Notes: generated by a model not told the origin, from the sequence alone. Shown: positions 9,875 to 64,000, counted from the stretch's first letter. The stretch is DNA of 64,000 nt from an uncultured Gammaproteobacteria bacterium (GCA_964403585.1 CAYOFQ010000001.1:799008-863007); one strand, 5' to 3'. Translations and numbers: made by a program.

Positions 9875-9877
9875 ACG

Positions 9878-10468
9878 CTATAAGGAGTTTATCTTATCTG
9901 TAATGCGCTGGTAAAAATACGCACTGTACTTTTGCGCAAACGGCACAAAGAACGCGCGGGTATCTTCCACAAACCGCTTAAATTCGGCAGGACGGGATCC
10001 CTTAAAATCATCAATAGTCAGCAAGTTAACAGTTCTATCCGCCAACTTTACGATTCGTGCTTCATGCGAAGAATTCTCTAGTCGTTTCAGAATTTTTTGC
10101 GTCGCGGTAAAAAATTCTTCGCCCCAAACAGGATGCTCATTTTCTGCGGAAGACTTTGTTAAAGTCATGACAATATTCGCAACGTCAGCAGGATATTCAT
10201 ATCGCAATTGTTGCTCGGAAAATTCGGGATCATCCTCAACTGCATCGTGAAGTAACGCAGAAGCAACGGCTATTTCAGGTACTACATCCGAACCGTATGA
10301 AATAATAACCTCTGCCGCGACAGGTAAAATATGCCCTTCCAATACCGACGAACCGTCAAAACGTTTTTGTTTAGAGTGAGACTTTTCAGCTTGAGAGAAT
10401 GCACGCTGGATAATCAAAGAATTTATTTGTCTGGAAGCAAGTAATTTATTAAATTCGGTTACCACCAT
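9878..10468 (-). CDS. HD-domain phosphohydrolase, RelA/SpoT-like small alarmone hydrolase candidate
   Basis: ...GHILPVAAEVI...IAVASALLHDAVEDD matches the SpoT HD signature. 196 aa with no synthetase domain. Confidence 0.55.
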   Translation of the reverse strand: MVVTEFNKLLASRQINSLIIQRAFSQAEKSHSKQKRFDGSSVLEGHILPVAAEVIISYGSDVVPEIAVASALLHDAVEDDPEFSEQQLRYEYPADVANIVMTLTKSSAENEHPVWGEEFFTATQKILKRLENSSHEARIVKLADRTVNLLTIDDFKGSRPAEFKRFVEDTRAFFVPFAQKYSAYFYQRITDKINSL

Positions 10469-44434: not shown

Positions 44435-45058
44435 CTAAATTTTGTCGATAAAAACTCGGGGATTGGCCGGAACTCCATACACACGCACTTCAAAGTGTAA
44501 ATGCGGACCCGTAGCCCAACCAGTCTCGCCTTCAGTACCAATAATCTCTCCAGGAGAAACTTCCTGATCTTTCTTTACCGCGATATTGTCCAAATGAGCG
44601 TAGAGCGAAGTAATATTATCGCCATGATCAATGATTACATGCTTACCATATCCCCACGATATTTCTCCAGCATAAATAACTTTTCCTTTCAAAAAAGACC
44701 TAATCGGATCACCCGTCTTACCTCTGGAATTGGCAATGTCAACGCCTGTATGTAGTGGTTGATACGGCAAGTCTGATTCACCAAACTCCAATGTAACTAC
44801 ACCACTTACAGGCAATATAGAGTCAAGTTTAAGTACCTTCACAATATTACCTGTAGCAGGATCCCGAATCTCAACTAAGCGTCCCGCTACACTTACCGTT
44901 GCTAATTTATCCGAAACAACTTGCGTCCCCGTTTGAGTGATTACAACTACCGCAAGCAAGGGGAGAGTAAGAACAAATAAAAACGTAAAGAAAACGATCT
45001 TAAGTTGTTGCTTAAATGAAAAAGTAAAAAATAAAGTTTTGAATATAGCAGGGTTCAT
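44435..45058 (-). CDS. M23 family peptidase (membrane-anchored; likely T4SS-associated cell-wall hydrolase)
   Basis: HTGVDIA...LYAHLD...GPHLHFEV. Confidence 0.8.
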   Translation of the reverse strand: MNPAIFKTLFFTFSFKQQLKIVFFTFLFVLTLPLLAVVVITQTGTQVVSDKLATVSVAGRLVEIRDPATGNIVKVLKLDSILPVSGVVTLEFGESDLPYQPLHTGVDIANSRGKTGDPIRSFLKGKVIYAGEISWGYGKHVIIDHGDNITSLYAHLDNIAVKKDQEVSPGEIIGTEGETGWATGPHLHFEVRVYGVPANPRVFIDKI

Positions 45059-46860
45059 GCAACATATTTCTCTGCTGGATTGGTGGTAATCAAAGGGTGT
45101 TCTTTTTCCGAAGCAACAACACGTACCGCAACATGATTTTGATCTGCAATAAGAAGAGCCTCGCCCTTATCACATGTTAAAAGAAAGTTCTGTTCGTATT
45201 CACTCAAATTAAATTCTTCTGAAACATTTTTAATAGTTGTTGTATCTTGTCTCATCAAAATTCGCAGCGAAGATTGCGAAGCAATAGCTTTACCATAATC
45301 ATTATTTAGGAAATCATTGGCTTGTTGAGAAACAATACTTACCCCGAGGTAATATTTTCGAGCCCTTCGCGTGAGTCCTGAAATGAATCGAGCACTTTCT
45401 TCGTGTTGTAACAAAATCCATCCTTCATCTATAACCAACAATCTCTTTTCAAGTTTTGATTTTACTTGACCATAAACAAAGTTGGAGATTACAACCAACA
45501 TAATTTGTCGCAAAGATTCACTTAAGTCTTTTATATCAAAAACAATAAGCCTATTATCAAGTGCAATATTTGTCTGACTATTGAAAACACCAGATAATGA
45601 ACCTTTTGTAAATTTTTCAAGGCGGTCACAAAGGTTCTTCTGCTTAAGTGCTTTAAGAGTCGCATACAAATCTTTTAACAATGGATATTTACTCCCTGTG
45701 TGATTATTTCCCTCATCAAGCGACCAGCCGAATTTTTTATAGGTTGCTAAAATAGCTTTATCAACAATGGCTTTTTCCTCAGAACTAAGCCCTTCCGCCA
45801 TTAACGAAATAATCTCAGTAAGATCTTGTACATGCGTAGACAAACTGTCCTCTACCTCTGCAGAATTTACCGAAAGATCAAAGGGGTTAATCTTCTCTTT
45901 TGCATGAGCGGAAACTTTAACATATGTTCCACCAACAGATTTTGCTAATTGTTCATATTCTCCTTCAGGGTCAATGACAATTACTTTTGTACCTTGCATT
46001 AATTGTCGCAAGATTTCCACTTTTGATGTATAGCTTTTACCTGAACCAGATTGCGCGAAGATAATACTATTGGCATTATTAAGGGAGAATCGATCAACTA
46101 TAACAAGCGAATTATTAGATTTATTAATGCCATACAAAATTCCTGATTCTTGAACAAGCTCTGATGAAACAAAAGGAAAAGTCAGTGCTGTCGATGAGCT
46201 ATCTAAATTACGTTTTTGATTTAATAGATTTTCTGCTCGAGGTAATATTGATTGCAATCCATCAATTTGTTGGAATGTAGCAGGCTTCGTATAAAAGAGG
46301 CGAGTAGAAAGAACAGTATCGAGAAGTGTAGTAATTTTATTAAGCTCAGAGAGCGAGTCAGCAATAATCGCAATATAGATTGAAACTTGAAATAGCTTTT
46401 CCTGACCTCTTTGAATTTTATCTTTCAGTTCAATTGCCGATTCAAGAGGGTCAAGCAGTTCAGAACCAATAATTCTTCCTGACCGTTGCATAGACCTTTT
46501 AGTGGACTCAAGCTCGGTAATCTTTCTATTCAGTTTAGGAAGCGCAATATGCGCATCAATCTGCTCTATATGGGACGATATGTCGATATTATGATTAAAA
46601 TTAACTAGATTATTAAGCCATCCAGTTGTTGCAACATACGGATATCCTGAGACAAATAAAGTTCTGACATATTTATTTTCTATTAAGAGATAATCTGGTC
46701 GTTCTTCAAGTCCAGAATACGAAATAAGATCAATGTGATCCTGCATACCAAAATGAAAATGCTTGGTACTGCGCTTCACTCGTTGCTTCTCTTTATGTGA
46801 AGCCAGTGATCTTTTTATTAGGCGAGCATAAGCTCCGATGATTGGAATGTTATATATCAT
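45055..46860 (-). CDS. VirB4/TrbE/CagE-family type IV secretion ATPase (ATPase portion)
   Basis: RTLFVSGYPYVATTGWLNNL, Walker A AQSGSGKS, Walker B LLVIDEGW. 601 aa. Confidence 0.8.
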   Translation of the reverse strand: MIYNIPIIGAYARLIKRSLASHKEKQRVKRSTKHFHFGMQDHIDLISYSGLEERPDYLLIENKYVRTLFVSGYPYVATTGWLNNLVNFNHNIDISSHIEQIDAHIALPKLNRKITELESTKRSMQRSGRIIGSELLDPLESAIELKDKIQRGQEKLFQVSIYIAIIADSLSELNKITTLLDTVLSTRLFYTKPATFQQIDGLQSILPRAENLLNQKRNLDSSSTALTFPFVSSELVQESGILYGINKSNNSLVIVDRFSLNNANSIIFAQSGSGKSYTSKVEILRQLMQGTKVIVIDPEGEYEQLAKSVGGTYVKVSAHAKEKINPFDLSVNSAEVEDSLSTHVQDLTEIISLMAEGLSSEEKAIVDKAILATYKKFGWSLDEGNNHTGSKYPLLKDLYATLKALKQKNLCDRLEKFTKGSLSGVFNSQTNIALDNRLIVFDIKDLSESLRQIMLVVISNFVYGQVKSKLEKRLLVIDEGWILLQHEESARFISGLTRRARKYYLGVSIVSQQANDFLNNDYGKAIASQSSLRILMRQDTTTIKNVSEEFNLSEYEQNFLLTCDKGEALLIADQNHVAVRVVASEKEHPLITTNPAEKYVA

Positions 46861-51685: not shown

Positions 51686-52081
51686 ATGGATAAAGGTGCA
51701 AAAGTAGGACAAGTATTAGGCGAATTAGAATCAGAGATAATGAATATTCTCTGGCAAGATAAACACGCTTTATCAGTACGACAGGTTACTGGCACACTAC
51801 AGCTCAAACGTAAAATTGCGTACACTACCGTGATGACAGTTATGGGAAGACTAGTGGAAAAAAGATTGTTAAGACAACAAGTCACTCATGGTCGAGCGTT
51901 CGTATATAAAACTGTATATTCTAAGGAAAAGTTTCTCACAAAGATCACAAGACAAATTATAAAAAACTTAACTTCAAGTTTTGGTGATATGGCAATAGCT
52001 CATTTTGCAAAAGAAGTAGAAAATATACCTGAGGAAAAGAAACGAAAATTACTTAAAATTTTAAACGAAGTGACTAAGTAA
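51686..52081 (+). CDS. BlaI/MecI/CopY-family winged-helix repressor
   Basis: ESEIMNILWQDKHALSVRQV...YTTVMTVMGRLVEKRLL. No C-terminal Cys motif, so BlaI-like rather than CopY. Confidence 0.75.
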   Translation: MDKGAKVGQVLGELESEIMNILWQDKHALSVRQVTGTLQLKRKIAYTTVMTVMGRLVEKRLLRQQVTHGRAFVYKTVYSKEKFLTKITRQIIKNLTSSFGDMAIAHFAKEVENIPEEKKRKLLKILNEVTK

Positions 52082-52082
52082 T

Positions 52083-52970
52083 ATGGCTACATCTCATAGA
52101 GTTTTTAGATTGTATTTAGTACTAACAGGTATTGTTTTTCTATTGTTCATATATACAGTAACAAAGCTTTTACCACTTTCAATAAATCATGTTGTTTATT
52201 ATTGCCAAAAGTCTATAGAGCATACGATTCTTTCACTTTCTCATCCGTTTCCTAATGCAATAATGCTAATTTTTTCTATTGCTTTGATAGTGGGCTTTTC
52301 ATTATTTTGTATATATATTGTTAGAACAAAAAACTTTACAAACTCGCTTTTAAAAAATAAATATAACCCTTCCAACTTACAAATTGATACAAAAATATTA
52401 AATACAATAGATTTTATAGAAAGTAAGGATGAAATAAGTTTTTGTTATGGAGTTATTAGTCCGAGAATTTGCATAAGCTCTGCGCTAGTTTCCTCATTGT
52501 CTATTGACGAGCTTAAAGCAGTACTCTTGCATGAATATACACACCTTCAAAATAAAGATCCATTAAAGATACTTCTATTAAAATCAATTACCTCTATGTT
52601 CTTCTTTATACCAATCTTAAAAGATATCCAAAACTACTTTATGCTTGCCAAAGAAATTGATGCTGACCAAATGGTAATGGCCGATATCAACAACAAACCT
52701 TATTTAAAATCAGCACTGACAAAAATTTTAGGATCATCATTAAACAAATTTAATATCGCTAATTTTTCAGAGAGCACTATACTCGAGCAAAGAATATTAA
52801 TTGCTAGTGGTTATAAAAAAAAGGTCACGTTCAGAGCTTCTTCTCAAAGTATTATTGTCTCACTTTTGAGCATCCTGCTTTTCTTTACTTTTATCAAATC
52901 ACCTCTGGTTATTAGTGAACCTAACTCAACTAAATACGAATACTTTTGTCAGCAAGATCTTCAGAATTAA
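52083..52970 (+). CDS. BlaR1-like M56 peptidase membrane protein lacking the penicillin-binding sensor domain
   Basis: HEYTHLQNKDPL (HExxH) after about 3 TM helices. Only 295 aa. Adjacent to the BlaI-like repressor (2-nt gap). Confidence 0.7.
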   Translation: MATSHRVFRLYLVLTGIVFLLFIYTVTKLLPLSINHVVYYCQKSIEHTILSLSHPFPNAIMLIFSIALIVGFSLFCIYIVRTKNFTNSLLKNKYNPSNLQIDTKILNTIDFIESKDEISFCYGVISPRICISSALVSSLSIDELKAVLLHEYTHLQNKDPLKILLLKSITSMFFFIPILKDIQNYFMLAKEIDADQMVMADINNKPYLKSALTKILGSSLNKFNIANFSESTILEQRILIASGYKKKVTFRASSQSIIVSLLSILLFFTFIKSPLVISEPNSTKYEYFCQQDLQN

Positions 52971-52983
52971 AAAAGTCAAACTT

Positions 52984-53871
52984 TTATATAACTTTCACCA
53001 TTTTCAAAACAAGAACTACTCCAATTAATATAATAATCACTGAACTAATTAAGGGGAAAAATTGTGAGACTTTTTGATTTGGAACATACTTATCAAAAAT
53101 CTGTTTAGAAGAAACCATTACAATTCCAATCGCTGCAATAACTGAAGCCATACCTAAACTAAAAACAGCAATTAATATCATTCCAAGTACTATTTTATTA
53201 AGACTAATAGCAATAATCATTATTGCAAGGGCTTCCGGGCAAGGTATCAGACCACCAGAAAACCCCAAGGAGATGATTTGTTTCATGTTTTTCTTACCGG
53301 GTATATCATTCAAGGAATGTACATGGTTAATATGTCCTGAGTCGTGAATATGAGAATGATGATAAGTTGAGTCATTGGACGCTTTATTGCCTTTGTATTC
53401 ATAGTATCTTTTTTGAAGAAGCCATATTCCTAAACTAAAAATTAACATCGCCGAAATGAGCTCAAGTAGTGGAATAATTTTTTCAGGTAAAAAATATTTT
53501 GTAGCAAATATTGAGATAAGTCCCAAAATATAAATTGATGAAGTATGTGTTATGGTTGTTACTCCAGCAAGAATAAGAGCATCCTTTTTAGTGCCATGTT
53601 GTCCAACAAGATAGGCAGCAACCAGAGTCTTGCCATGTCCTGGTGTCAACGAGTGAAGCCCTCCTAAAATAAATGCTATCCCTAGTGCCCAAAAATAAAC
53701 ATCAACCCCCGCCTTATCATTTTTTAACATAGTGGCTATTTGGTTGACCTTACTCTGTGCAGATTCATTTGGACTGGAGTTTGTATTCGATTGTCCATAG
53801 ACGAGAGAACTACCGCTGCTAATAGCAAGTAGACTTACAAAAAGAAATAATGTCGTAATAAAGTTCTTCAT
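52984..53871 (-). CDS. NicO/RcnA-family nickel/cobalt transporter
   Basis: HSLTPGHGKT motif, His-rich loop HHSHIHDSGHINHVH, 6 TM helices. Confidence 0.75.
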   Translation of the reverse strand: MKNFITTLFLFVSLLAISSGSSLVYGQSNTNSSPNESAQSKVNQIATMLKNDKAGVDVYFWALGIAFILGGLHSLTPGHGKTLVAAYLVGQHGTKKDALILAGVTTITHTSSIYILGLISIFATKYFLPEKIIPLLELISAMLIFSLGIWLLQKRYYEYKGNKASNDSTYHHSHIHDSGHINHVHSLNDIPGKKNMKQIISLGFSGGLIPCPEALAIMIIAISLNKIVLGMILIAVFSLGMASVIAAIGIVMVSSKQIFDKYVPNQKVSQFFPLISSVIIILIGVVLVLKMVKVI

Positions 53872-54035
53872 GGTTTATGCTTTCAGTAATAGTAAGTGCA
53901 CAACATTATTCTACTACGTCAAGTAGTAGGATAATATGAGATGCGATGAGGTTGTCTGTTTAAGAATTCCCAGATAGCCAATAGTACGATATAATACTAC
54001 GACGTGTAGTAATTGAGATACCTGAAAGAGAGACT

Positions 54036-54470
54036 GTGTTCATGAAGGAACTACTAAAAAAATATATTCTCTATATCGCTTGGATTCAGGCTATTATAGC
54101 AATGCTCGGAAGTCTTTATTTTAGTGAAATTGCAAAGTTTACTCCCTGCGTACTCTGTTGGTATCAACGCATTTTAATGTACCCACTTGTCGCACTGATC
54201 CCAGTTGGGATTTTGAGAAAAGATAAGGGACTTCCCACTTATGTGTTGCCTCTAACTGTAACAGGATTATTAATCTCGGGTTATCATAATCTACTGTATT
54301 ACAAGATTATTCCCGAAAGCGCAGCACCATGTAAGTTAGGTGTTTCATGCACGACTAAATTCATTCAATGGTTTGGATTTGTTACTATTCCATTCTTATC
54401 ATTTGTTGCATTTGCAGTTATCACTATATGTATGGTTATTTATCGGAGGTCGCAAAAAAAAGAACTATGA
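54036..54470 (+). CDS. bdbC: Disulfide bond formation protein (DsbB/BdbC family)
   Basis: LGSLYFSEIAKFTPCVLCWYQRILMYP resembles Bacillus BdbC. Second Cys pair in the later loop. Confidence 0.8.
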   Translation: MFMKELLKKYILYIAWIQAIIAMLGSLYFSEIAKFTPCVLCWYQRILMYPLVALIPVGILRKDKGLPTYVLPLTVTGLLISGYHNLLYYKIIPESAAPCKLGVSCTTKFIQWFGFVTIPFLSFVAFAVITICMVIYRRSQKKEL

Positions 54471-55123
54471 CAGGAGAAACAAAAATCATAACAACCGTAA
54501 TTGTAGTAACTATGCTGATATTAGTAGGAGGAGCTTATTTTGCAACAAGCTTTGGTCCAAAAGAAGCATTAACGATACTACCTAAAGAACAACTCAAATT
54601 ACTTTCGCGAGATGGTGATAATAAAATAGTTGCGGAAAAATCTAAAGTTACCATCACTGAATTTGCAGACTTCGAATGTGAGGCATGTGGAGCTACGTTT
54701 CCTATCGTCAAAAAGGTATTGGAAGAATACAAAGGAAGAGTTACCTTTGTTCACAAATATTTTCCCCTTCCCAATCACCGAAGTGGACGATTAGCTGCAC
54801 AAAGTGCCGGAGCTGCTGGAAAGCAGGGAAAGTTCTGGGAAATGTATAACAAATTATTTGAAAAACAGGCAGAGTGGGGAGAGCAGCAGACACCTCAAAA
54901 AGAGAAGTTCATCAGTTACGCAAAAGAAATCGGATTAGATATAGCTAATTTTGAAAAAGACCTTGATAATAAAGAATTAGAAGAACGTATTCAGCAGGAT
55001 ATTAACGATGGCAACGAGTTAGGAGTGAACTCAACACCTACATTTTTTATTAATGACGAGCGAATAGTAGGTGGAATGCCATATGAAGACTTTAAGAAAA
55101 AACTTGATGAAAAATTAAAATAG
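54467..55123 (+). CDS. Thiol-disulfide oxidoreductase (DsbA/BdbD family)
   Basis: TEFADFECEACG is a CxxC motif. N-terminal TM anchor. Start taken as the ATG overlapping the bdbC stop (ATGA); the track ORF begins earlier inside bdbC. Confidence 0.8.
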   Translation: MTGETKIITTVIVVTMLILVGGAYFATSFGPKEALTILPKEQLKLLSRDGDNKIVAEKSKVTITEFADFECEACGATFPIVKKVLEEYKGRVTFVHKYFPLPNHRSGRLAAQSAGAAGKQGKFWEMYNKLFEKQAEWGEQQTPQKEKFISYAKEIGLDIANFEKDLDNKELEERIQQDINDGNELGVNSTPTFFINDERIVGGMPYEDFKKKLDEKLK

Positions 55124-55132
55124 AGAGTAGCT

Positions 55133-57031
55133 ATGATAAACGACTTACTAAAAAATAAAAAGTTTACCTACTTACTTATTGCACTCGTAATTGTTGTTCC
55201 GCTTGAAATTTTATCTCTACTTAATGTCGAAATACCGTTAATTTTAGAGATATCACTATTTTCCATTATCATAATTTTATTTGGAAGGGGCGTTATCAAG
55301 AATGGTCTTGAAAGCCTTATCCACTTTAACTTCTCAAATATAAATCTGCTTATGACTATCGCTGTTATTGGTGCAGCGTATTTAGGAGAGTTTGAAGAGG
55401 CTGCAATTATTATTGTACTTTTTTCACTGGGAGAAACACTTGAAGAGTTTGGCATTGATAGAAGTCAGGGAGCACTTAAGGAGCTCGTCGATAATTCGCC
55501 TAAATCTGCTCAACTTAAAGGAAGAGAGGATAGAACTCTATTAGAAAATCTGAAAATAGGCGAAATAGTAATTATTAAGCCAGGGGATCAGATTCCGCTT
55601 GATGGAACTATCGTACGGGGCAGTTCCCTAGTCGATGAAAGTGCCATAACAGGTGAACCATTACCGAAAAGTAAAATAACAGGGGATCTAGTTTATGCCG
55701 GTACACATAATACGGGCGGCTACTTAGAAGTACAAATAACTAAAGATCCGAAAGATACGACGCTCTCAAAGATAATAAATTTGGCTTATAATGCCGCAGA
55801 GAAAAAATCACGAACACAGAGATTTATCGAAAAATTCGCAGGATATTATGTACCTTCAGTAATTATAATTTCGGTGGCACTCGTTATTATTCCTGTTTTC
55901 TTGCTGGGACAACCGTTCAATCCATGGTTTATTCAAGCATTAACCATTTTATTAATTTCGTGCCCATGTGCTCTCGTTATTTCAACCCCAATAAGTGTTT
56001 TTTCGGCAATCGGCAATGCCTCCAAAAAAGGAATACTAATAAAAGGAGGCTTGTATATCGAAGAAATCGGAAATATTAAGGCACTAGCATTAGACAAAAC
56101 ACGTACCCTAACAAAAGGTGAACCAATCGTATCTGACATCGTGGGATTTAATGGGGCATCACAGGATGACGTTTTAGAGTGCATCTCTGGCATCGAAGCA
56201 TTATCCGAACATCCCGTCGCCAAAAGTGTAGTAGACAAAGCGAAGCAAAAAGCACTAAATTCTCATGAATTTAAGAATTTTGAATCGATCATGGGAAAGG
56301 GAGTAAAAGGCGAATGTGCAATATGTTCAGATGCACATCATTGTGTTGGATCACTAAAGTTTATAACAGAAGAACATGCCGTTAACGATGAGGTAATCAA
56401 GAAAGTAGAAGAATTCGAAAAACAAGGTAAAACAACCATAGTTATGAGTGACCATAACAGAGTCACTGGTGTAATTGGAGTAATGGATGAGGTGCGACCA
56501 GAGAGTAAATCATTAATCAACCAACTGAAAGAAATGGGCATTACTCCAGTTATGCTCACAGGAGATAATACTTCGGCCGCAAATTATGTCTCTCAACAAC
56601 TTGGGATTACCGAGGTTCGATCTCAGTTACTTCCTCAGAATAAAGTTGAAGAAATCCAAGCTCTATTAAAAAAATATTCTTCGGTAGGAATGATTGGAGA
56701 TGGTGTAAATGATGCCCCTGCGCTTGCCACAGCGTCTGTAGGGATTGCAATGGGGGCAATTGGATCTGATGCGGCAATAGAGAATGCAGATATTGCATTA
56801 ATGAACAATAATTTAAGCGTTATCCCTTATCTTATCAGATTAAGTAAAACGACTGTAGCTAAAATACGATTTAACACTGCCTTGGCCATTGGGGTGAAAG
56901 CTCTTTTTCTTATATTCGCCTTCGTGGGGGTAAGCAACTTAGCTTTAGCAATTTTTGCCGACGTAGGAGTGACTGTGTTTGTCATACTTAATAGTTTGCG
57001 TTTATATGGCTATAATGAAACTACTTTATAA
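55133..57031 (+). CDS. P1B-type heavy-metal ATPase without N-terminal HMA domain; atypical DKTRT phosphorylation motif
   Basis: TGEP, CPCALVISTP, DKTRTLTKGE (canonical DKTGT), MIGDGVNDAPAL. 632 aa and starts directly with TM helices. Confidence 0.85.
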   Translation: MINDLLKNKKFTYLLIALVIVVPLEILSLLNVEIPLILEISLFSIIIILFGRGVIKNGLESLIHFNFSNINLLMTIAVIGAAYLGEFEEAAIIIVLFSLGETLEEFGIDRSQGALKELVDNSPKSAQLKGREDRTLLENLKIGEIVIIKPGDQIPLDGTIVRGSSLVDESAITGEPLPKSKITGDLVYAGTHNTGGYLEVQITKDPKDTTLSKIINLAYNAAEKKSRTQRFIEKFAGYYVPSVIIISVALVIIPVFLLGQPFNPWFIQALTILLISCPCALVISTPISVFSAIGNASKKGILIKGGLYIEEIGNIKALALDKTRTLTKGEPIVSDIVGFNGASQDDVLECISGIEALSEHPVAKSVVDKAKQKALNSHEFKNFESIMGKGVKGECAICSDAHHCVGSLKFITEEHAVNDEVIKKVEEFEKQGKTTIVMSDHNRVTGVIGVMDEVRPESKSLINQLKEMGITPVMLTGDNTSAANYVSQQLGITEVRSQLLPQNKVEEIQALLKKYSSVGMIGDGVNDAPALATASVGIAMGAIGSDAAIENADIALMNNNLSVIPYLIRLSKTTVAKIRFNTALAIGVKALFLIFAFVGVSNLALAIFADVGVTVFVILNSLRLYGYNETTL

Positions 57032-57052
57032 GTATTGAACTAATCAAGACAA

Positions 57053-57769
57053 ATGAAACATATTCTTGCCTTTCTATTTGCCACTGTCTTAGCAAGTATT
57101 CTCTATTATGGGACTACTTCATTAAATAAGAATGTACAGTTATCGTCATTCAGGAACATCACGGCACAACTTCTGTCTGAAGATTATGTAAAGGAAAATA
57201 TTTTATCTCAAAATGGAGAATTTAAAGAAAACGAATCTGAATATATCTTCAATAATAAAACATTCCCAGCCCCAGCAAATTATCTAAAATCTCTATCTAA
57301 TAAACCTGATTTATTACAAACAGTGCTGGGATCAACAACAGAAAGCAAAAAAATTATAGTGGATCTTGCTGCGCAACGTGTCTATGCTTATGAAGGTGAC
57401 CGACTTGCCTTTAACTTTTTAGTTTCAACGGGGAAATGGGACGCAACTCCTCCGGGAAATTATAAGATTTGGTATAAAGTAAGATCACAGACCATGAAAG
57501 GAGGCAGCAAAGAATTAGGAACATATTACTATTTACCCAACGTACAGTGGATACAATATTTTAATAATGGTATTGGTTTTCATAGCACATACTGGCATAA
57601 CAATTTTGGTACACCAATGTCACATGGTTGTGTGAATATGACTATCATTGATGCTGAAACACTGTATCATTGGGCAAGTCCTACAATGACCGAAAATAGA
57701 AAAATATTTAGATCCACGTCTGAAAACCCCGGTACTCCTGTAGAAGTAGTAAACTCCTGGGATTTTTAA
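57053..57769 (+). CDS. L,D-transpeptidase (YkuD domain)
   Basis: HSTYWHNNFGTPMSHGCVNM catalytic motif. Confidence 0.8.
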   Translation: MKHILAFLFATVLASILYYGTTSLNKNVQLSSFRNITAQLLSEDYVKENILSQNGEFKENESEYIFNNKTFPAPANYLKSLSNKPDLLQTVLGSTTESKKIIVDLAAQRVYAYEGDRLAFNFLVSTGKWDATPPGNYKIWYKVRSQTMKGGSKELGTYYYLPNVQWIQYFNNGIGFHSTYWHNNFGTPMSHGCVNMTIIDAETLYHWASPTMTENRKIFRSTSENPGTPVEVVNSWDF

Positions 57770-57775
57770 TGGAAA

Positions 57776-58096
57776 TTATCCGGTCATTTCATATTTTAAC
57801 AATGATAAAGTTTCCTCTTTAGCTTTTTCTACTGATTGTCCCCATGCCTTGGCAGCTTTATCGAATATTTCTTCAAGCTCTGGTTGTGGAGTAGCAGGAT
57901 CTTCTAACCATTTAAGCACAAGTTCTTTCGATTCCTTTGTTGATTTTTTCCATTTTTTCGCAATGTGCGAAAATGTCTCGGTTGTTATGTTATCTCCATT
58001 ACCCATAGAGTCATCGGGAGCCCAACATCCACAGTTGTAACACATATAATTCTCCTTTTTGAGGAGGTGCATGTCTTCTTCCATGAACCTCCTCAT
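57776..58096 (-). CDS. Small cytoplasmic Cys-motif protein (CYNCGC)
   Basis: 106 aa with N-terminal YMCYNCGCW. No signal peptide. Confidence 0.3.
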   Translation of the reverse strand: MRRFMEEDMHLLKKENYMCYNCGCWAPDDSMGNGDNITTETFSHIAKKWKKSTKESKELVLKWLEDPATPQPELEEIFDKAAKAWGQSVEKAKEETLSLLKYEMTG

Positions 58097-58109
58097 AACT
58101 GTTTATGAT

Positions 58110-58778
58110 TTATCTTTTTCTTAAATGAAGTGCTAACGAAATGGCTCCCAATAATAATCCACCATATGATACCCAAGTCGTAGAATTATTATTGTTTTGT
58201 GCAACCGCTTTAGTATTGTTCTGCGCAACAGCAGGCTTCTCTTCCTTTGCAAGGTCATCTATTACCTTAGTTTCAGAATATGGACGTGGTGCATTATGAT
58301 CATCTTCTTGTCCTTCTTTAGGCGGATTTTTTTCTGCATACTCCTTAACTACTTCAGGGCTATTTTCCCACGCTACAATATCTCCGTCTCCGTAAGTTTG
58401 ATACGCTTTCCAAACGATAGTTGTCTTTGAAGCGGGAGCCTGAGCACTAAATACAAATTCGTCTCTCTGCTCGGAAGGAATACTTCCACCAGTCCAGATA
58501 ATTTCTTTAACAACAGAATCTTCACCTTGCCCACTTTTCTTTAACTCAATTTTCCAGCCCGGTTTTACATTAGGTCGCACACTTTGTATACCTTCAGGAA
58601 TGATCAATCTCACAGCCACAGTTGGATCATCTTCTTCTGTCGGAACACTAACTACAAAGTTAGTTCTGGCTGCAACACCGATCTCACTTGGCTTAACACT
58701 AACATGCGCAAAAGCTGAAGAAGTACTTAAAGATAAAAATATTGGAACACTCAAAAGTACTATTAAATTCTTTTTCAT
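58110..58778 (-). CDS. ycnI: YcnI-like (DUF1775) copper-binding protein, C-terminally membrane-anchored
   Basis: Signal peptide ...SSAFA then HVSVKPSE. WKAYQTYGDGDIVAW parallels Bacillus YcnI. C-terminal TM helix. Confidence 0.8.
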   Translation of the reverse strand: MKKNLIVLLSVPIFLSLSTSSAFAHVSVKPSEIGVAARTNFVVSVPTEEDDPTVAVRLIIPEGIQSVRPNVKPGWKIELKKSGQGEDSVVKEIIWTGGSIPSEQRDEFVFSAQAPASKTTIVWKAYQTYGDGDIVAWENSPEVVKEYAEKNPPKEGQEDDHNAPRPYSETKVIDDLAKEEKPAVAQNNTKAVAQNNNNSTTWVSYGGLLLGAISLALHLRKR

Positions 58779-58812
58779 ATAATCTTTCGTAATAAAATCA
58801 AAAATAAAAATT

Positions 58813-59694
58813 TTACGAAAGAGAGTGAGGGGGAGATTTGTTCTTTATGGTCTCGCTGTTTTTATAGTAATATGTGGTTAGTCTGGCTTGACGAAACTGA
58901 GAGAAAAGTTCTAATTGTGGAGAAATATCAAGTGCTATTAAAGGTGAAGCTGTTTGTGTCGTACAGCACGGGTGTACTTGATGATCAGAGTGGGATGAAT
59001 TCTGTGCTTCTGCATGCTTAGTGTGAGTATCGTTTTCAATAAGTATCTGCGATTGGAAGCAGAGATTGAGTAATGTAACCGAGCTAATTAGGATAAAAAC
59101 AATTATTGAAGTTAAAGTTTTCGCGTTTTTTTTCGATTTATCACCTCTAAATTTATTCCAGAAGACAATTATGATAAATACTGCTGCAATAACACTAAGT
59201 ATCACATAGTGGAGTATGCTTTGCTGAGTGAAATCGCTGACATTACTCGTTTGAACGGGTAAATTTTGCTTGTCTGATTCTCTACTAACGCGTATTTCAT
59301 AGACAAGAGAAAACGAATCGAAAGTAAACGATTCAATCGGCATTCCATTAACCATTATTTTATAAATGCCTTTTTCTGGGAAAGTGTACCCAAAACTTGA
59401 ACTAGTTAAACTCGGATCACCATTGTGCTGACTAAACGTCGTGGAATAGATAACTCTTTCATCCTTGACTACTAGTGCTTCGCAATGACATTTCGATAAT
59501 TGAAATTTATTCTCTTTATCCTTAATTTCAAAGAAAAAATCTGATTGTTCACCAACAATAGGATCATCTTCTGGGCTAATATGAATTACAGCACCAATTG
59601 GACCATCTGTCTTAAGAGTATGAGCATCAACAGGCTCCACAAAAGAAACCACTGAAAGTACAATCGCAAGAATAATAATAAACTTTTTTACCAT
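58813..59694 (-). CDS. Secreted N-terminal-His protein (CopC-like pattern) with TM helix and Cys/His-rich tail
   Basis: Predicted cleavage VDA|HTLKTDGPIGAVIHISPEDDP. Mid TM helix. Tail HTKHAEAQNSSHSDHQVHPCC. Confidence 0.4.
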   Translation of the reverse strand: MVKKFIIILAIVLSVVSFVEPVDAHTLKTDGPIGAVIHISPEDDPIVGEQSDFFFEIKDKENKFQLSKCHCEALVVKDERVIYSTTFSQHNGDPSLTSSSFGYTFPEKGIYKIMVNGMPIESFTFDSFSLVYEIRVSRESDKQNLPVQTSNVSDFTQQSILHYVILSVIAAVFIIIVFWNKFRGDKSKKNAKTLTSIIVFILISSVTLLNLCFQSQILIENDTHTKHAEAQNSSHSDHQVHPCCTTQTASPLIALDISPQLELFSQFRQARLTTYYYKNSETIKNKSPPHSLS

Positions 59695-59715
59695 AGAATC
59701 ACCCTAATTATCACT

Positions 59716-61248
59716 TTACTTGACTTCAATTGTAAATTCCGCAAGATTTACCACATCTTTATGCTTGAACTGTGCAAAGATACGATATACTCCCTTTTCT
59801 AAAATCTTACCTTGTAATGGCATGGGCGTAAACTCAATAGTTGGACCACCTTGCTCTTCAAGTTGAGCCATTGCCATCTTGCCTCCAATTGAAGGATGAA
59901 CATGAGTATAGTCTCTATTGCTTTGACGAAGCATAATTAAATGTCCAAAAGCACCTAGGTAAGGTTGTAAATCAGTAATAGGTTTCTTCGTAGCTTTGTC
60001 CTTAACCGTAAGAGATATCGATTGTCTTCCAAGAGATAGTTGTGCCGACTGTAAGGTATCGCTTGTAGAAAGAGTAACTTCATAGTTACCAAACAGTTTT
60101 GTTAAATTAGTATCTGGTTTCTGAATGCTAGGTGCTACCTCTGTAACATTTCCCACTGAAATAGTAAAACCGTCAGTCTGTTCAGTAAAGCCAAATGGAT
60201 CATAATTGAGATAAATGTAATATGTCCCGTCTTTAGGGAATTGTGTCTTTAAATGAAACGTATTACCCTCCTGTTCAGGGTGAGTATGCTCATAGTACGA
60301 AAGCGTACTATCTACAATAATTGTATGCATAACTTTCTCGTACATAATTTTAAAAAGAGAAATGGGTCTATCGGTACCATTTTCAAGAATTTGAAAGGGA
60401 ATATCAACATCTGTCCTGGGAAGATTATTACCCGAGTCTGAAGTAACTACTCGGAATTTATCAATTGGAGTAGAACCTGAGTTATTCAGATGAGAAGTAT
60501 TGGTCGATGCAGTTTTATGTAAACCATGAATACTTACCGACTTAGTTCCCTCTAGATAAGGTCGAGCAGAAAGAAAATAGAATCCAACAAGTAAGAGCGT
60601 ACCAACACCAAAAATAAAATATTTTCGTATAACGGGGAATTTACTAGTGATATAACAATCTATTCGGTACAGTTCCAGTAGAAATAATATTACCAGTGCA
60701 GTAAGGAAAATGAATGGAATAGTTTGAGAAAGATCAGAGAAGTGACTACCCAACATAAGTGCATGAGTCACAATCAATATTCCTGCAATATAGACCGTTC
60801 TATGAATTCGTTTCCAATTACTTTTGAGTATTATTACAAAAATTCGCATTGATGTTAATGCCAGAATGGATAGAATGATTAACGCAGTTAAACTAGAAAG
60901 GATAGGAAGTATATAATTTTTGCTTAAAAAAGGAAGTCCTTCGAACCCGCCAAGTGACTTAAAAAATGCAAAATATGCATGAAGACATCCGAATAAAAAT
61001 GCCGATAAACCCAATGATTGACGAGCTCTTATCCACAAAATTCTTCCTGGAAGATGATTGAAGGCTATATAAAGTGGGCTGGGGAGTAGAGTTACATACA
61101 AGAATGTAAGGGATGTGAGACCATAAAACTGGACAAGTCGTATTATTTGAAGATTCTCAGGATAATAATAGTGAACGAATCCATAGAAAGCTACTGATAA
61201 GGCTAGGGATATAATAAGAATTACTGGTCTAATGTAGCTATATATCAT
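59716..61248 (-). CDS. Ferric-reductase-domain (bis-heme b) membrane protein fused to His-rich extracytoplasmic domain; candidate metal (cupric) reductase
   Basis: N-terminal about 230 aa polytopic with H-x12-H (IHRTVYIAGILIVTH) and a further TM His. The C-terminal about 250 aa carries YEKVMHTII, HTHPEQEG, LQPYLGAFGHLIM, HVHPS and FTPM...KGVYRIFAQFKH. Overlaps the next gene by 11 nt. Confidence 0.6.
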   Translation of the reverse strand: MIYSYIRPVILIISLALSVAFYGFVHYYYPENLQIIRLVQFYGLTSLTFLYVTLLPSPLYIAFNHLPGRILWIRARQSLGLSAFLFGCLHAYFAFFKSLGGFEGLPFLSKNYILPILSSLTALIILSILALTSMRIFVIILKSNWKRIHRTVYIAGILIVTHALMLGSHFSDLSQTIPFIFLTALVILFLLELYRIDCYITSKFPVIRKYFIFGVGTLLLVGFYFLSARPYLEGTKSVSIHGLHKTASTNTSHLNNSGSTPIDKFRVVTSDSGNNLPRTDVDIPFQILENGTDRPISLFKIMYEKVMHTIIVDSTLSYYEHTHPEQEGNTFHLKTQFPKDGTYYIYLNYDPFGFTEQTDGFTISVGNVTEVAPSIQKPDTNLTKLFGNYEVTLSTSDTLQSAQLSLGRQSISLTVKDKATKKPITDLQPYLGAFGHLIMLRQSNRDYTHVHPSIGGKMAMAQLEEQGGPTIEFTPMPLQGKILEKGVYRIFAQFKHKDVVNLAEFTIEVK

Positions 61249-62128
61249 TGTTCTTTTTCTTTCGTCTCTTTCTCATAATATAGATTATATCTAAGGCAAC
61301 CACTAATCCAATAACTAAAGGCGAGCCAAAAAAAGTAACGAGCGTAATAATTCGACTTTTCAAACTAATCGTGGATGCGTTTGGATCGGTAGGATCATAT
61401 ATTGCAACATCTTTTACTTCTCCAGAAAGTGTAACAATTGCATATCCTACAAAACCATTCGAGTCTGTAATACGCAAAACAGTAGATTTGATAAGTGAAC
61501 CAGTTTCTTTATATTGATAGGTCGGACTTTCTTCGGTTTTATATATATTTTCGTCCAGTTTCCACAGGTAAGAAACTACCTTAGCGGATGGATCAGTTTC
61601 AGCATTACTTCTGAATGTAACAGGCTTCCTGGCATCAATACCAAAATTAAATACTCCTATTCGAGCAATTGGCAATTTATACTTTAAGTTAGGAACAACA
61701 TCAAGTTTTACGCTATTTATAAGAGTATAGGTATTTTCTTGTGGAAGTTTCATTTCCATAATCAGCTGATGCGAACCAATTTTTTTATAGGTGTGTGAAA
61801 GTTTGGTCCCTGAAGAGTATTCAGCAATACCTTCATCCCAAGTCCATCTAAACTCAACTAGTGGTTTTAACTCTCCTGCAATCTGGAGATTCTGCATATC
61901 AATTTCAAAATTAATAGGCACATTCACAAGGTATTTTTCTTCAGGTGGCAAATCTTGCGCTACATTAAGTTTTTTATCTTGCACTGTAAGCGAGGGGTTT
62001 GATTGCGCATACTTACCGTTAATTTTAAGAAACGGTGGACCACTGCCATGAGCAAAGGCCTGATTAAAATTAGCTGTTGCAAACAAGCTAACGATGATTA
62101 CAATAATAATTCCAAGAGCTAATTTCAT
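61238..62128 (-). CDS. Secreted N-terminal-His protein with PKD-like domain and C-terminal TM anchor
   Basis: Predicted cleavage AFA|HGSGPPF. FRWTWDEGI...SHTYKKIGSH is PKD-like. C-terminal TM plus KRRKKK. Confidence 0.4.
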   Translation of the reverse strand: MKLALGIIIVIIVSLFATANFNQAFAHGSGPPFLKINGKYAQSNPSLTVQDKKLNVAQDLPPEEKYLVNVPINFEIDMQNLQIAGELKPLVEFRWTWDEGIAEYSSGTKLSHTYKKIGSHQLIMEMKLPQENTYTLINSVKLDVVPNLKYKLPIARIGVFNFGIDARKPVTFRSNAETDPSAKVVSYLWKLDENIYKTEESPTYQYKETGSLIKSTVLRITDSNGFVGYAIVTLSGEVKDVAIYDPTDPNASTISLKSRIITLVTFFGSPLVIGLVVALDIIYIMRKRRKKKNNDI

Positions 62129-62206: not shown

Positions 62207-62521
62207 CTAACCAGCTTTTCGAACAACTTTCATTACTTCTTCGATAGAAACTTTTGTTTCTCCCTTTTTTATATGGTCGACGACACACGTATTCATATGA
62301 TGCTCAAGCATAAGAAAATCAGTTTCTTTCAAAGCTCTTTGAACAGCCTGTGACTGATGAATAATGTCTACACAATACTCATCCTTTTCCATCATATCAA
62401 TGACTTTACTAAGATGTCCTCGAGCGATTTTAAGCCTATGAACAATCCGATTTTTTAAATCTTCGTTCGTTTTTAACATACTATTCCTTTCATGCTTGCA
62501 CAGTATATCCAGCAGTTTCAA
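62207..62521 (-). CDS. csoR: CsoR-family copper-sensing repressor
   Basis: RLKIARGHLSKVIDM...YCVDIIHQ...LEHHMNTCVV. The x-C-H-C fingerprint with H-x4-C spacing is CsoR-type rather than RcnR-type. Confidence 0.8.
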   Translation of the reverse strand: MKLLDILCKHERNSMLKTNEDLKNRIVHRLKIARGHLSKVIDMMEKDEYCVDIIHQSQAVQRALKETDFLMLEHHMNTCVVDHIKKGETKVSIEEVMKVVRKAG

Positions 62522-62699
62522 TAACTCGCTTTAGCTGATCTACCGATACTTTTGTCTCCTCATATTCAATTTCAGATAGCCCTTTAGCAAAATTTGTCTG
62601 CGAAGTCTTTACACCCTCTAATTCTTCAAGATCCCCATCAATTCGCATCGAACAACTAGAACAATGCATACCAGATATTTTTATTATCGTTTTTGTCAT
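62490..62699 (-). CDS. copZ: HMA-domain copper chaperone (CopZ)
   Basis: GMHCSSC MxCxxC motif. 69 aa. Confidence 0.85.
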   Translation of the reverse strand: MTKTIIKISGMHCSSCSMRIDGDLEELEGVKTSQTNFAKGLSEIEYEETKVSVDQLKRVIETAGYTVQA

Positions 62700-62711
62700 T
62701 AATAGATCCTC

Positions 62712-63767
62712 CTACTCAACTATAAAATTACCTCTATACATTCCCATAGAGCAACTATAAGCAAGCAGTCCTGTAGACTCAGGAATAAATGTAAGAACTT
62801 CTTTACCTGTTGCGGGAAGTATTTTTTGGATATCTAACTTTGGAATTGTAAATGCGCTTGCGCAGGAATACGTGTTACTTGTTTTTAAAGTTAACCTTAC
62901 CGGGACTCCTTTTTTGAGCTTCACCTTATCAGCGCTATATCCTGATGAAGTAACATTTATGGTAACGTCTTGCACTTCAAAGTTAGCCGGGATAGCAGAA
63001 CTATTTTCCAATGCTACTTGCTCTGCGCCTAGAACATCTTCAGACGAGCTAGTGTAAATAGAAGTAATAGTATCAAACGTATACCGTGCACCGAGTAAAT
63101 TCAGTCCACCATTAAAAGACATCCCTGCAAGAATAATTAGTACTGCTGACGTAGCTTTATAAAAATACTGTTGCATAAATTGATTAAATTTAGTTGCAGC
63201 AATTCCAACAGCCAAGAATATCCAAGAAGAAGAAAGGGTGAAAAGAAACATTATTAAAGCACCGCTCAATGCACTACCTGACGATATCGCAAGAGCCTCC
63301 ATAGCAAGGGTAGTACCGCAAGGGATAATTAAAGTCGTAAGGCCGAGCAACAATGGAGTGGTTAATTCATCGTTTCCCTTTGCTATTTTACGAACCATTC
63401 TTTGTAATGATGAAGGGGGTTGAAGAATAAAATAACGAAATAGGGGATGAACATTCAATAGTTGTAAAGCAACACCAACCATATAGATCGCAACTATGAT
63501 TTGTATCCACCCTTGCATTGTAGTACTAATACTAAAAAAGGAACCAAAAATACCTAAGAGTGCTCCAAACAAAGTATAAATTGCTATCTTACCTGCAAGA
63601 AAAGCAAAAGTAGGTTTCAGATTCGACAACAAGGTATTCTCTTCTATTTCATTTTTTTTCTTTATTTGCGACAGTACAGAGGTCAGTAACCCTCCTTGTA
63701 TTGCAAAACAAGTAAGACCTCCTGTTGTAATGCCAGCAATAACGATTGGTATAAAACTTATATCCAT
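62712..63767 (-). CDS. Polytopic membrane protein (DsbD_2/CcdA-like TM core?) with C-terminal cupredoxin-like beta-domain
   Basis: 6 or more TM helices. C-terminal KLKKGVPVRLTLKTSNTYSCASAF...YSCSMGMYRGNFIVE resembles the Cupredoxin_1-type ending. Confidence 0.4.
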   Translation of the reverse strand: MDISFIPIVIAGITTGGLTCFAIQGGLLTSVLSQIKKKNEIEENTLLSNLKPTFAFLAGKIAIYTLFGALLGIFGSFFSISTTMQGWIQIIVAIYMVGVALQLLNVHPLFRYFILQPPSSLQRMVRKIAKGNDELTTPLLLGLTTLIIPCGTTLAMEALAISSGSALSGALIMFLFTLSSSWIFLAVGIAATKFNQFMQQYFYKATSAVLIILAGMSFNGGLNLLGARYTFDTITSIYTSSSEDVLGAEQVALENSSAIPANFEVQDVTINVTSSGYSADKVKLKKGVPVRLTLKTSNTYSCASAFTIPKLDIQKILPATGKEVLTFIPESTGLLAYSCSMGMYRGNFIVE

Positions 63768-63776
63768 ATAGTTCCT

Positions 63777-64000
63777 CTACTTTTTAATGTTTACTAAATT
63801 AAGCCGTAGTGAATTCATCACTACACTTATCGAACTTAAAGCCATTGCAACAGAAGCAAATACAGGATTCAAAAGTATTCCCCACAACGGATATAAAACC
63901 CCTACGGCAACAGGAATTAAAATGACATTATATCCAAATGCCCAAAAGAGATTTTGCATAATATTAGACATTGTCTTTTTAGAGAGTCGTATTGCTTGAG
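63777..64000 (-). CDS. copA: P1B-type ATPase (CopA-like), C-terminal fragment; gene continues beyond the window end
   Basis: [23 protein letters not shown]...[16 protein letters not shown] is the conserved TM7-8 end of CopA-type ATPases. Upstream frame is open to position 64000. Confidence 0.75.

Follow-up and report, generated by a model that had tools for sequence, protein, structure and literature searches.

The protein YcnI of Bacillus subtilis is a specific, nanomolar binder of Cu(II) that works in copper acquisition, holding the metal in a mono-histidine brace formed by its N-terminal histidine together with Glu50 and Trp137 (B. subtilis numbering) (PMC8424229). Its operon partners are the repressor YcnK and YcnJ, a CopC-CopD-YtkA protein that exchanges Cu(II) with YcnI. 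In the so-called signal-strapping families (DUF4198, DUF6702, Ang-1 and Ang-2), the N-terminal histidine forms a mono- or bis-histidine metal site (PMC12537917). Synthesis of copper proteins can be controlled by CruR (DUF2946), a copper-responsive arrest peptide with a CxxC motif, a fixed spacer and a RAPP motif (PMC9426467), and Fujiwara et al. reported that small RAPP/RGPP proteins with transmembrane (TM) segments are enriched upstream of YcnI-family genes (PMC12992588). Here we describe a locus in a stretch of 64,000 nucleotides (GCA_964403585.1, CAYOFQ010000001.1:799008-863007; hereafter the window, meaning the whole stretch at its full length), labelled as DNA of an uncultured Gammaproteobacteria bacterium, in which the partners of YcnI are instead an MsrQ-like haem protein (P4), two further proteins with a predicted N-terminal histidine (P3 and P5) and an arrest-like module. 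Of these, P3 founds a large, previously undescribed and widespread family of likely copper-binding proteins. The components of the locus are the following:

61238-62128, minus strand: P5; signal peptide (residues 1-26), predicted mature His27, two PKD-like domains, a C-terminal TM helix, then RKRRKKK
59716-61248, minus strand: P4; 510 amino acids (aa), a predicted seven-TM MsrQ/ferric-reductase-like haem-b domain, then two homologous Ig-like ectodomains
59245-59694, minus strand: N-terminal part of P3; signal peptide (residues 1-24), then an Ig-like beta-sandwich ectodomain
58813-59244, minus strand: C-terminal part of P3 ("module X"); TM1, a basic loop, TM2, a His-rich stretch, HPCC, KSPP and the tail HSLS before the stop
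58783-58822, minus strand: RNA stem; perfect 10-bp pairing with a 20-nt loop
58110-58778, minus strand: YcnI (DUF1775); 222 aa, signal peptide, mature His25, Glu48, Trp137 and a C-terminal TM anchor
57776-58045, minus strand: SC, a small Cys-rich cytoplasmic protein whose first residues are MCYNCGC

The start of P4 overlaps the end of P5 by 11 nt, and the remaining genes are separated by 21 nt (P4-P3), 34 nt (P3-ycnI) and about 64 nt (ycnI-SC). A first-pass annotation of this DNA had singled out YcnI, P3 and P5 as three secreted proteins beginning with histidine and had taken their genes to be consecutive. The three open reading frames (ORFs) lie where it placed them, all on the minus strand, but they are not consecutive, since the membrane protein P4 separates P5 from P3. 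The N-termini themselves agree exactly with that annotation: MKKNLIVLLSVPIFLSLSTSSAFA|HVSV for YcnI, MVKKFIIILAIVLSVVSFVEPVDA|HTLK for P3 and MKLALGIIIVIIVSLFATANFNQAFA|HGSG for P5. In each, a basic n-region precedes a hydrophobic core of 13-15 residues, and positions -3 and -1 are occupied by small residues. In all three, cleavage at an AxA or VxA site is predicted to leave histidine as residue 1 (YcnI His25, codon 58704-58706; P3 His25, 59620-59622; P5 His27, 62048-62050). These cleavage sites gain support because their context is conserved among relatives. In the P3 family, histidine occupies position +1 in 154/154 representatives, after a median of 24 residues, with Ala (149), Gly (4) or Ser (1) at -1 and A, V, I, T or S at -3. 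The P5 relatives, 28 sequences drawn from the fetched loci, have a nearly invariant Ala followed by His in 25 and by Asn in three (loci L010, L013 and L018); a second possible AxA site in the window P5 (A17-T18-A19|N20) is not conserved among them.

P3 has no match in Pfam or NCBIfam, nor among PDB sequences when searched as a single sequence or as a profile, and a word-indexed search returned only 9 relatives. A hidden Markov model (HMM) scan of 1.84 billion cluster representatives gave 1,583 matches at E≤1e-3, of which 275 at E≤1e-30, and almost all of these matches begin at profile position 1 and at residue 20-30 of the protein. Conservation was counted on the best 154 representatives after clustering at 50% identity, and His1, His14, Pro17, Asp19, Pro21 and Cys45 are present in every one of them (His1 is His25 of the precursor, His14 is His38, codon 59581-59583, and Asp19 is Asp43, in a PEDDP loop). 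The first five residues are also found in at least 90% of the 70 species-level locus sequences, distant Saccharibacteria included, and a CxC motif (Cys69/Cys71 in the window) has been lost in one clade. The expectation that His1 would be conserved among homologues is thus borne out for P3. With respect to described families, Pfam gave weak generic Ig matches alone over 142 P3 members (Ig-like_KY in 35, PKD in 19), and none of these members matched CopC, YtkA, DUF1775 or PCuAC. The possibility that P3 is a true CopC (PF04234) was rejected, as no match was obtained at E≤10 with the window ectodomain, at E≤1 with the 142 members, or in the PDB profile search. The Pfam families of lytic polysaccharide monooxygenases (LPMOs; AA9-AA17) and X325 were matched neither by the window P3 nor by the 142 relatives, and kinship of P3 with YcnI or P5 was also discarded (hhalign probabilities of 0.8% and 3.3%, respectively). 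The first-pass annotation was therefore right to place P3 and P5 outside curated families, apart from generic Ig/PKD folds.

The AlphaFold2 model of the mature P3 ectodomain, which is small (about 115 residues), is an eight-stranded, Greek-key Ig-like sandwich with a mean predicted local distance difference test (pLDDT) score of 80.7, and its best structural match is CrdA, a CopC-like copper protein. Strands 2-6 and 9-16 of the model are connected by a 2-residue turn consisting of an invariant Asp-Gly. Because of the register of this hairpin, as given by the secondary-structure string of the model, residue 1 would lie directly across from residue 14. P3 has no sequence relationship to CopC or to Helicobacter pylori CrdA (PDB 5ICU, 9LL2). 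Its His1, His14 and Asp19 are invariant but occupy other sequence positions than the Cu(II) ligands of CopC: the second His and the Asp follow 13 and 18 residues from the terminus, in the N-terminal hairpin, and not near residue 85-91. P3 also differs from both proteins in having an extra CxC and a TM anchor, and CrdA itself lacks any His. The site predicted for P3 is of a known kind, but its arrangement is new. The proteins of the signal-strapping families resemble P3 in being secreted, in their conserved N-terminal His and in having an Ig-like sandwich tethered to a membrane component (PMC12537917); however, neither P3 nor P5 matches them, they occur in other phyla, and their partner is a HupE/UreJ permease, whereas that of P3 is a haem reductase-like protein. 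Thus, the earlier suggestion that P3 and P5 are candidate His-brace proteins finds partial support for P3, which combines an invariant His1 with a second His, an Asp and a CrdA-like sandwich, but much less so for P5, as discussed below.

YcnI was correctly assigned to DUF1775 (PF07987), scoring 88.4 bits against a gathering cut-off of 25 (E=7.7e-25), and it matches the structure of B. subtilis YcnI (PDB 7me6) at E=4e-15. Its His25, Glu48 and Trp137 align gaplessly to His1, Glu24 and Trp111 of mature 7me6, so that all three copper-site residues are in place, and its C-terminal TM helix is followed by RKR. By these sequence features, sharing with B. subtilis YcnI the domain, the mature N-terminal His, the Glu and Trp ligands and the TM anchor, the window YcnI is an ordinary member of an already known family. 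In one related locus (L007, minus strand, 8954-10120) a single in-frame protein of 388 aa comprises both a short P3 and YcnI, with the signal-peptide-like segment of YcnI and its A|H site in the interior; this ORF is either a real fusion with internal cleavage or the product of a missed stop or start.

The TM domain of P4 matches the MsrQ (YedZ)/ferric-reductase superfamily, including conserved histidines in TM3 and TM5 that are putative haem ligands. Its scores of 25.5 bits for Pfam Ferric_reduct (cut-off 28) and 45 bits for NCBIfam MsrQ (E=8.8e-12; equivalog cut-off 130) fall below the respective thresholds and hence indicate membership at the superfamily level only; homologues of P4 on related contigs carry the Ferric_reduct match unmarked. 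A single-sequence PDB search with P4 gave nothing useful. Seven TM helices are predicted, and counts over 39-62 homologues showed that the histidines in TM3 and TM5 are almost invariant (H90 in 59/59, H162 in 60/60 and H169 in 58/61); two more conserved histidines, H241 and H244, lie just past the last TM helix. Each of the two ectodomains contains an invariant H-x12-H-x-H-P motif (H308/H321/H323 and H436/H449/H451), and the ectodomains are homologous to each other (Ig1 versus Ig2, hhalign probability 97.7%). P4 shares with MsrQ the logic of delivering electrons to an extracytoplasmic partner, but a seventh TM helix and two fused Ig-like ectodomains with three histidines each set it apart, and MsrP is absent. 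The only Pfam hint for the ectodomains is to YtkA-like domains, at 16-20 bits, which is below the gathering threshold. As in the YtkA (CtaK) domain at the C-terminus of YcnJ, these ectodomains are extracellular and fused after the membrane domain of a ycnI-linked protein; to our knowledge, H-x12-H-x-H-P is not a feature of YtkA. The body of P3 shows weak profile similarity to Ig1 of P4 (probability 45%, E=2e-4). Saccharibacterial versions of P4 lack both ectodomains.

In about 12 related loci, a separate ORF of 103-156 aa is located between a short P3 (about 185 aa) and ycnI. The encoded proteins have two TM helices, a His-rich stretch, HPCC, and a [RK][SA]PP motif 2-5 residues before the stop, and residues 186-293 of the window P3 (58813-59139) share these features: Cys243/244 (58963-58968) are followed by 41 variable residues and K286-S-P-P289 (58828-58839). 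The ORF immediately upstream of ycnI ends in [RK][SA]PP in 22-23 of 59 loci. All 21 Cys-bearing members keep 40-42 residues between the CC and [RK][SAP]PP, while the residues in between vary freely, and the first position of the motif is Lys in 7 of 23 members. On this basis, P3 is a fusion whose C-terminal third looks regulatory and arrest-peptide-like. The annotation that P3 and P5 are membrane-tethered is correct for both; for P3, however, this C-terminal third looks regulatory and unlike a simple tether.

Module X resembles CruR and the RAPP peptides in being a small membrane or exported peptide with a Cys pair, a fixed spacer (41 residues here, about 45 in CruR) and a C-terminal R-x-P-P near the stop, directly upstream of a copper gene. 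It differs in having CC instead of CxxC, in being operon-internal and not leading, in that its motif is often RSPP or KSPP and its Pfam similarity sub-threshold, and, in the window, in being fused to a structural protein. The readout would also be different, as it is Rho termination for CruR and, as we propose, the opening of a hairpin at the ribosome-binding site for module X. This hairpin is a 10-bp stem in which TCTTTCGTAA (58813-58822, the last P3 codons and the stop) is complementary to TTACGAAAGA (58783-58792), a segment that immediately precedes the ycnI ATG (58776-58778). It has a minimum free energy of -10.4 kcal/mol; its duplex energy of -11.5 is matched by 0.3% of control 3' ends and by none of 300 shuffles. 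Over 23 loci, the pairing energy between the 3' 27 nt of module X and the ycnI ribosome-binding window averages -10.1 kcal/mol, against -5.2 for the 3' ends of other genes (Wilcoxon P=8e-5, for loci that are not phylogenetically independent), and 11 loci fall in the top 5% of the controls. It should be noted that part of this signal is the pairing of CCUCC with GGAGG.

P5 differs from P3 in how firmly its N-terminal histidine is retained. It passes the Pfam cut-offs for PKD_4 (33.1 bits, cut-off 27) and PKD (30.4 bits, cut-off 23.5), it matches PKD domains of ColH in the PDB (E=1.6e-9), and it has a conserved HGSGPPFLKING motif and a conserved start, A|H-G-S-G-P-P-F-L-K-I-N-G. GPPF, Asn37 and Asp59 are more constant among the 28 relatives than His1, whose conservation among P5 homologues, expected earlier, does not hold. 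A metagenome scan added only 2 further P5 loci, with a search pattern that contained the His and was hence biased. The AlphaFold2 model is of low confidence (pLDDT 62), and its Foldseek matches are generic tandem Ig/PKD proteins. Because the His is not invariant and the model is poor, the label of His-brace protein is weak for P5, a PKD surface protein in which His1 is conserved for the most part yet can be dispensed with. It may even be no metalloprotein at all, a view that we find plausible without preferring it: the His would be incidental to an A|H-x-x-G-P-P-F processing or packing motif of a PKD-type surface scaffold or adhesin. The relatives that replace His by Asn while keeping GPPF, N37 and D59 would then be easily understood, as would the generic Ig/PKD structural matches and the absence of P5 from about half of the full cassettes and nearly all minimal ones; yet a His directly after the cleavage site in 25/28 is far above the usual frequency of His at +1, the gene is translationally coupled to P4 through the 11-nt overlap, and P5 is always found together with two other N-terminal-His proteins. 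In two loci (L011 7894-9731 and L012 7861-9695), two tandem P5 paralogues are located downstream of ycnI, both with A|H starts and with differing next motifs (HLSTQTPFF and HSGGIPF).

These genes form a conserved unit. In a scan of one genome per species, which gave 67 loci whose ORFs were typed by HMM, P4-P3-YcnI is present in about 55, P5 in 29 and SC in 6. The same gene order, without cop genes, was found on independent metagenome contigs encoding relatives. Loci with a named taxon belong nearly always to Patescibacteria (Microgenomates-type Woyke-, Levyi-, Davies- and Curtissbacteria, and Saccharibacteria), and two are cyanobacterial. Many other loci are labelled as metagenome-assembled genomes of "uncultured Gammaproteobacteria", and we take these labels to be wrong because the loci carry the same cassette as the named Patescibacteria. 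No paper in the literature collection searched links YcnI/DUF1775 with Patescibacteria. Two grades can be distinguished by the form of P4. Where P4 is long (n=35), every P3 has the CxC (35/35), and 23 loci include P5 and 19 module X; where P4 consists of the TM domain only (n=18, Saccharibacteria), the P3 CxC is found in 3 (two on truncated contigs), and P5 and module X in 1 each. Both grades share YcnI and the His1, His14 and Asp19 of P3, and the split in CxC and ectodomains may simply follow phylogeny.

Directly upstream of the cassette, the window contains copper-efflux genes:

62207-62521, minus strand: CsoR-family copper-sensing repressor (Pfam Trns_repr_metal, 78 bits)
62490-62699, minus strand: CopZ copper chaperone; HMA domain with an MHCSSC motif (Pfam HMA, 54.5 bits; NCBIfam CopZ, E=1.9e-17)
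62712-63767, minus strand: DsbD_2-type membrane protein with a C-terminal cupredoxin-like domain (Pfam DsbD_2, 97.5 bits; Cupredoxin_1, 43.3 bits)
63777-64000, minus strand: C-terminal end of CopA, a Cu(I)-exporting P1B-type ATPase; the gene continues beyond the window end

The CopA fragment matches NCBIfam ATPase-IB1_Cu (E=1.5e-23) and CopA in the PDB (E=1e-21). CsoR is called as 90 aa on an identical Logan contig, and its real start probably lies downstream of the listed TTG. The DsbD_2-cupredoxin gene, which is located between copA and copZ, has no NCBIfam name, and relatives of it occur near the cassette in the two cyanobacterial loci L053 and L073. The adjacency of CsoR, CopZ and CopA from which an expanded set of copper-handling His-brace proteins had been proposed is thus true of the window. 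Linkage to csoR, copZ and copA as a conserved feature was rejected, however, as they adjoin the cassette in no more than 0-2 of 71 related loci (CsoR in 1, CopZ in 0, P1B ATPases in 2), which indicates that the copper-efflux context is special to this genome. The real unit is a conserved autonomous cassette composed of P5, P4, P3 (with or without module X), YcnI and sometimes a small CxxCxC protein.

The gap between csoR and P5 (62129-62206) is 78 bp long, with both genes on the same strand and without a convincing terminator. It contains a promoter-like TTGCCC-17-TACAAT (9/12 matches) and a short G4/C3 inverted repeat, and the cassette may have its own promoter by this sequence. Scans for promoters and terminators over 57-64 kb were at chance level (29 versus 25.7 expected, and 7 versus 4.1), and an Rfam scan of the window found one tRNA only, with no riboswitch or leader near the cassette. 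At the other end of the cassette, AAGGAG is located 6 nt upstream of Met18 of the listed SC ORF, and Met18 is likely the true start. SC has no match in Pfam or NCBIfam; homologues accompany the cassette in 5 further species loci (L005, L015, L022 and L037 among them), and it may be a Cu(I)-binding partner or a regulator. Next to it, positions 51686-57769 form a metal and envelope-stress island that encodes a BlaI/CopY-like repressor with a BlaR-like HExxH membrane protein, a NicO/RcnA-like exporter, DsbB- and DsbA-like proteins, a ZntA-type P1B ATPase without an HMA domain and a YkuD L,D-transpeptidase. The G+C content of the last 22 kb of the window (42000-64000) is 32-38%, down from about 42-47%, and a VirB4-like conjugal-transfer ATPase (CD1110 family) is encoded at 45055-46860 inside this low-G+C stretch; the island may belong to a mobile element or to a patescibacterial type IV system. 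Farther away, at 7385-9874, the window encodes a full-length three-domain LigD (phosphoesterase, ligase and polymerase; the DNA ligase D of non-homologous end joining) in what is apparently a small patescibacterial genome.

Based on these data, we favour the view that the cassette serves copper handling at the outer surface of the cell membrane, by Cu(II) capture and electron transfer through P4, because it parallels the YcnI/YcnJ system: P3 corresponds to CopC, and P4, with its YtkA-like ectodomains, replaces CopD. We hold this overall reading with about even confidence. YcnI and P3, held at the membrane by TM segments, would capture Cu(II) through their free N-terminal histidines, YcnI by the known mono-histidine brace (His, Glu, Trp) and P3 by a new site composed of His1, His14 across the N-terminal beta-hairpin, and Asp19. 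P4 would exchange electrons with the bound copper across the membrane, most likely so that Cu(II) is reduced and can be handed on as Cu(I), and would thus stand in place of the CopD-YtkA part of YcnJ, as P3 would in place of its CopC domain. P5 would be an accessory surface protein, possibly with a further weak site at its N-terminal His. The C-terminal third of P3 would act as a fused CruR-like sensor that tunes YcnI synthesis: during a pause on the Pro-Pro codons, the ribosome would occupy the 5' arm of the stem, which would make the ycnI ribosome-binding site accessible and couple YcnI synthesis to copper status or to membrane insertion. The analysis itself shows conservation and gene order, the assignment to families, the RNA complementarity and the fold model; copper as the metal of P3 and P5 is inferred, as are the direction of electron flow and the translation arrest.

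Several observations weigh against this view. The cassette contains no recognisable copper permease (CopD or Ctr), so that an uptake route is missing, and many Patescibacteria lack quinones and respiratory chains, which raises the question of the electron partner of P4. The position of the cassette behind csoR-copZ would fit induction by copper excess, not by scarcity. The closeness of His1 and His14 in P3 derives solely from the hairpin register of a model, and an N-terminal-His metal site in P5, with Asn in 3/28, is possible but much less secure than that of P3. As for the proposed sensor, Pfam DUF2946 (PF11162) matches a single module X member, with 16.5 bits (cut-off 23.7; E=0.015), and does not match module X of the window, and a profile search with module X returned 4 relatives, all without Pfam domains and without a link to DUF2946. 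Moreover, the motif in the window is KSPP, whereas no substitute for the Arg of RAPP was tolerated in those arrest peptides that have been tested.

The main rival is detoxification, in which the P4 ectodomains would oxidise Cu(I) exported by CopA, the haem would conduct the electrons inward, and Cu(II) would be buffered at the cell surface on YcnI, P3 and P5 as high-affinity N-terminal-His proteins. The genomic setting speaks for it, as the cassette follows csoR-copZ by 78 bp on the same strand without a convincing terminator, within 12 kb that amount to a metal-resistance island (ZntA-like ATPase, NicO/RcnA-like exporter, DsbA/DsbB), and so do the lack of an importer and the fact that CrdA, the best structural match of P3, is a copper-resistance protein. 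However, this setting is not shared, with cop genes adjoining only 0-2 of the 71 related loci, and the promoter-like site in the csoR-P5 gap leaves co-transcription unestablished even here. In addition, B. subtilis YcnI serves copper acquisition (PMC8424229), and the precedent of CruR is an arrest-type control that turns genes on at copper scarcity (PMC9426467). We therefore regard detoxification as unlikely, and the explanations that remain, a catalytic enzyme or another metal, as less likely again.

P3 could be a catalytic copper centre, a tethered bis-His-brace oxidase or LPMO-like enzyme fed by P4 and possibly directed against host envelope polymers. Haem domains (CDH, CYBDOM) that feed LPMOs provide an analogy, and the invariant His1 and second His of P3 are paired with a dedicated transmembrane haem protein in every genome; histidine-brace proteins are known to include oxygenases and peroxygenases (PMC10952591), and Patescibacteria inhabit host cell surfaces, so that episymbiotic cells could use such an enzyme. 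Yet the ectodomain is small and nearest to chaperone-type folds (CrdA, CopC), no LPMO family matches it in sequence, and its partner YcnI is a binding protein and not an enzyme, all of which makes this explanation improbable. Only slightly better are the prospects of a more far-reaching version, in which Patescibacteria would have a self-contained redox machine at their surface: the MsrQ-like haem-b protein would wire electrons from the cytoplasm or the membrane to a membrane-tethered His1/His14 hairpin-brace copper centre with Asp19, which would either be catalytic (oxidase- or LPMO-like, acting on the envelope of the host or of the cell itself) or constitute the first dedicated cupric reductase of bacteria, with the partner YcnI gated by a copper-sensing arrest peptide uniquely fused to a structural protein. 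Least probable of all, in our opinion, is that the N-terminal histidines bind Ni, Fe or Zn and that the cassette is a ferric-reductase or "anglerase"-type capture system: YcnI is a specific nanomolar Cu(II) binder with its three ligand residues intact here, module X resembles the copper-responsive CruR, the cassette has no Ftr1- or Feo-type permease, and P19 and FetP themselves bind copper.

In summary, two features of this locus are the most interesting, neither of them noticed in the first-pass annotation: P3 is conserved as the partner of a haem membrane protein, and it carries a fused module that resembles arrest peptides. Few copper proteins are known that use a free N-terminal histidine (LPMOs, CopC, YcnI, X325 and the recent "anglerases"), and each new family of this kind has changed how copper chemistry or trafficking is understood. 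With P3, a large family of different site architecture (about 1,580 clusters at 50% identity, without a Pfam model) would join them. Its pairing with the haem protein provides a testable candidate for copper reduction or oxidation outside a cell without a periplasm, and the fused module, with its 41-residue spacer and anti-Shine-Dalgarno tail, a testable example of the RAPP-type upstream ORFs that precede YcnI genes.

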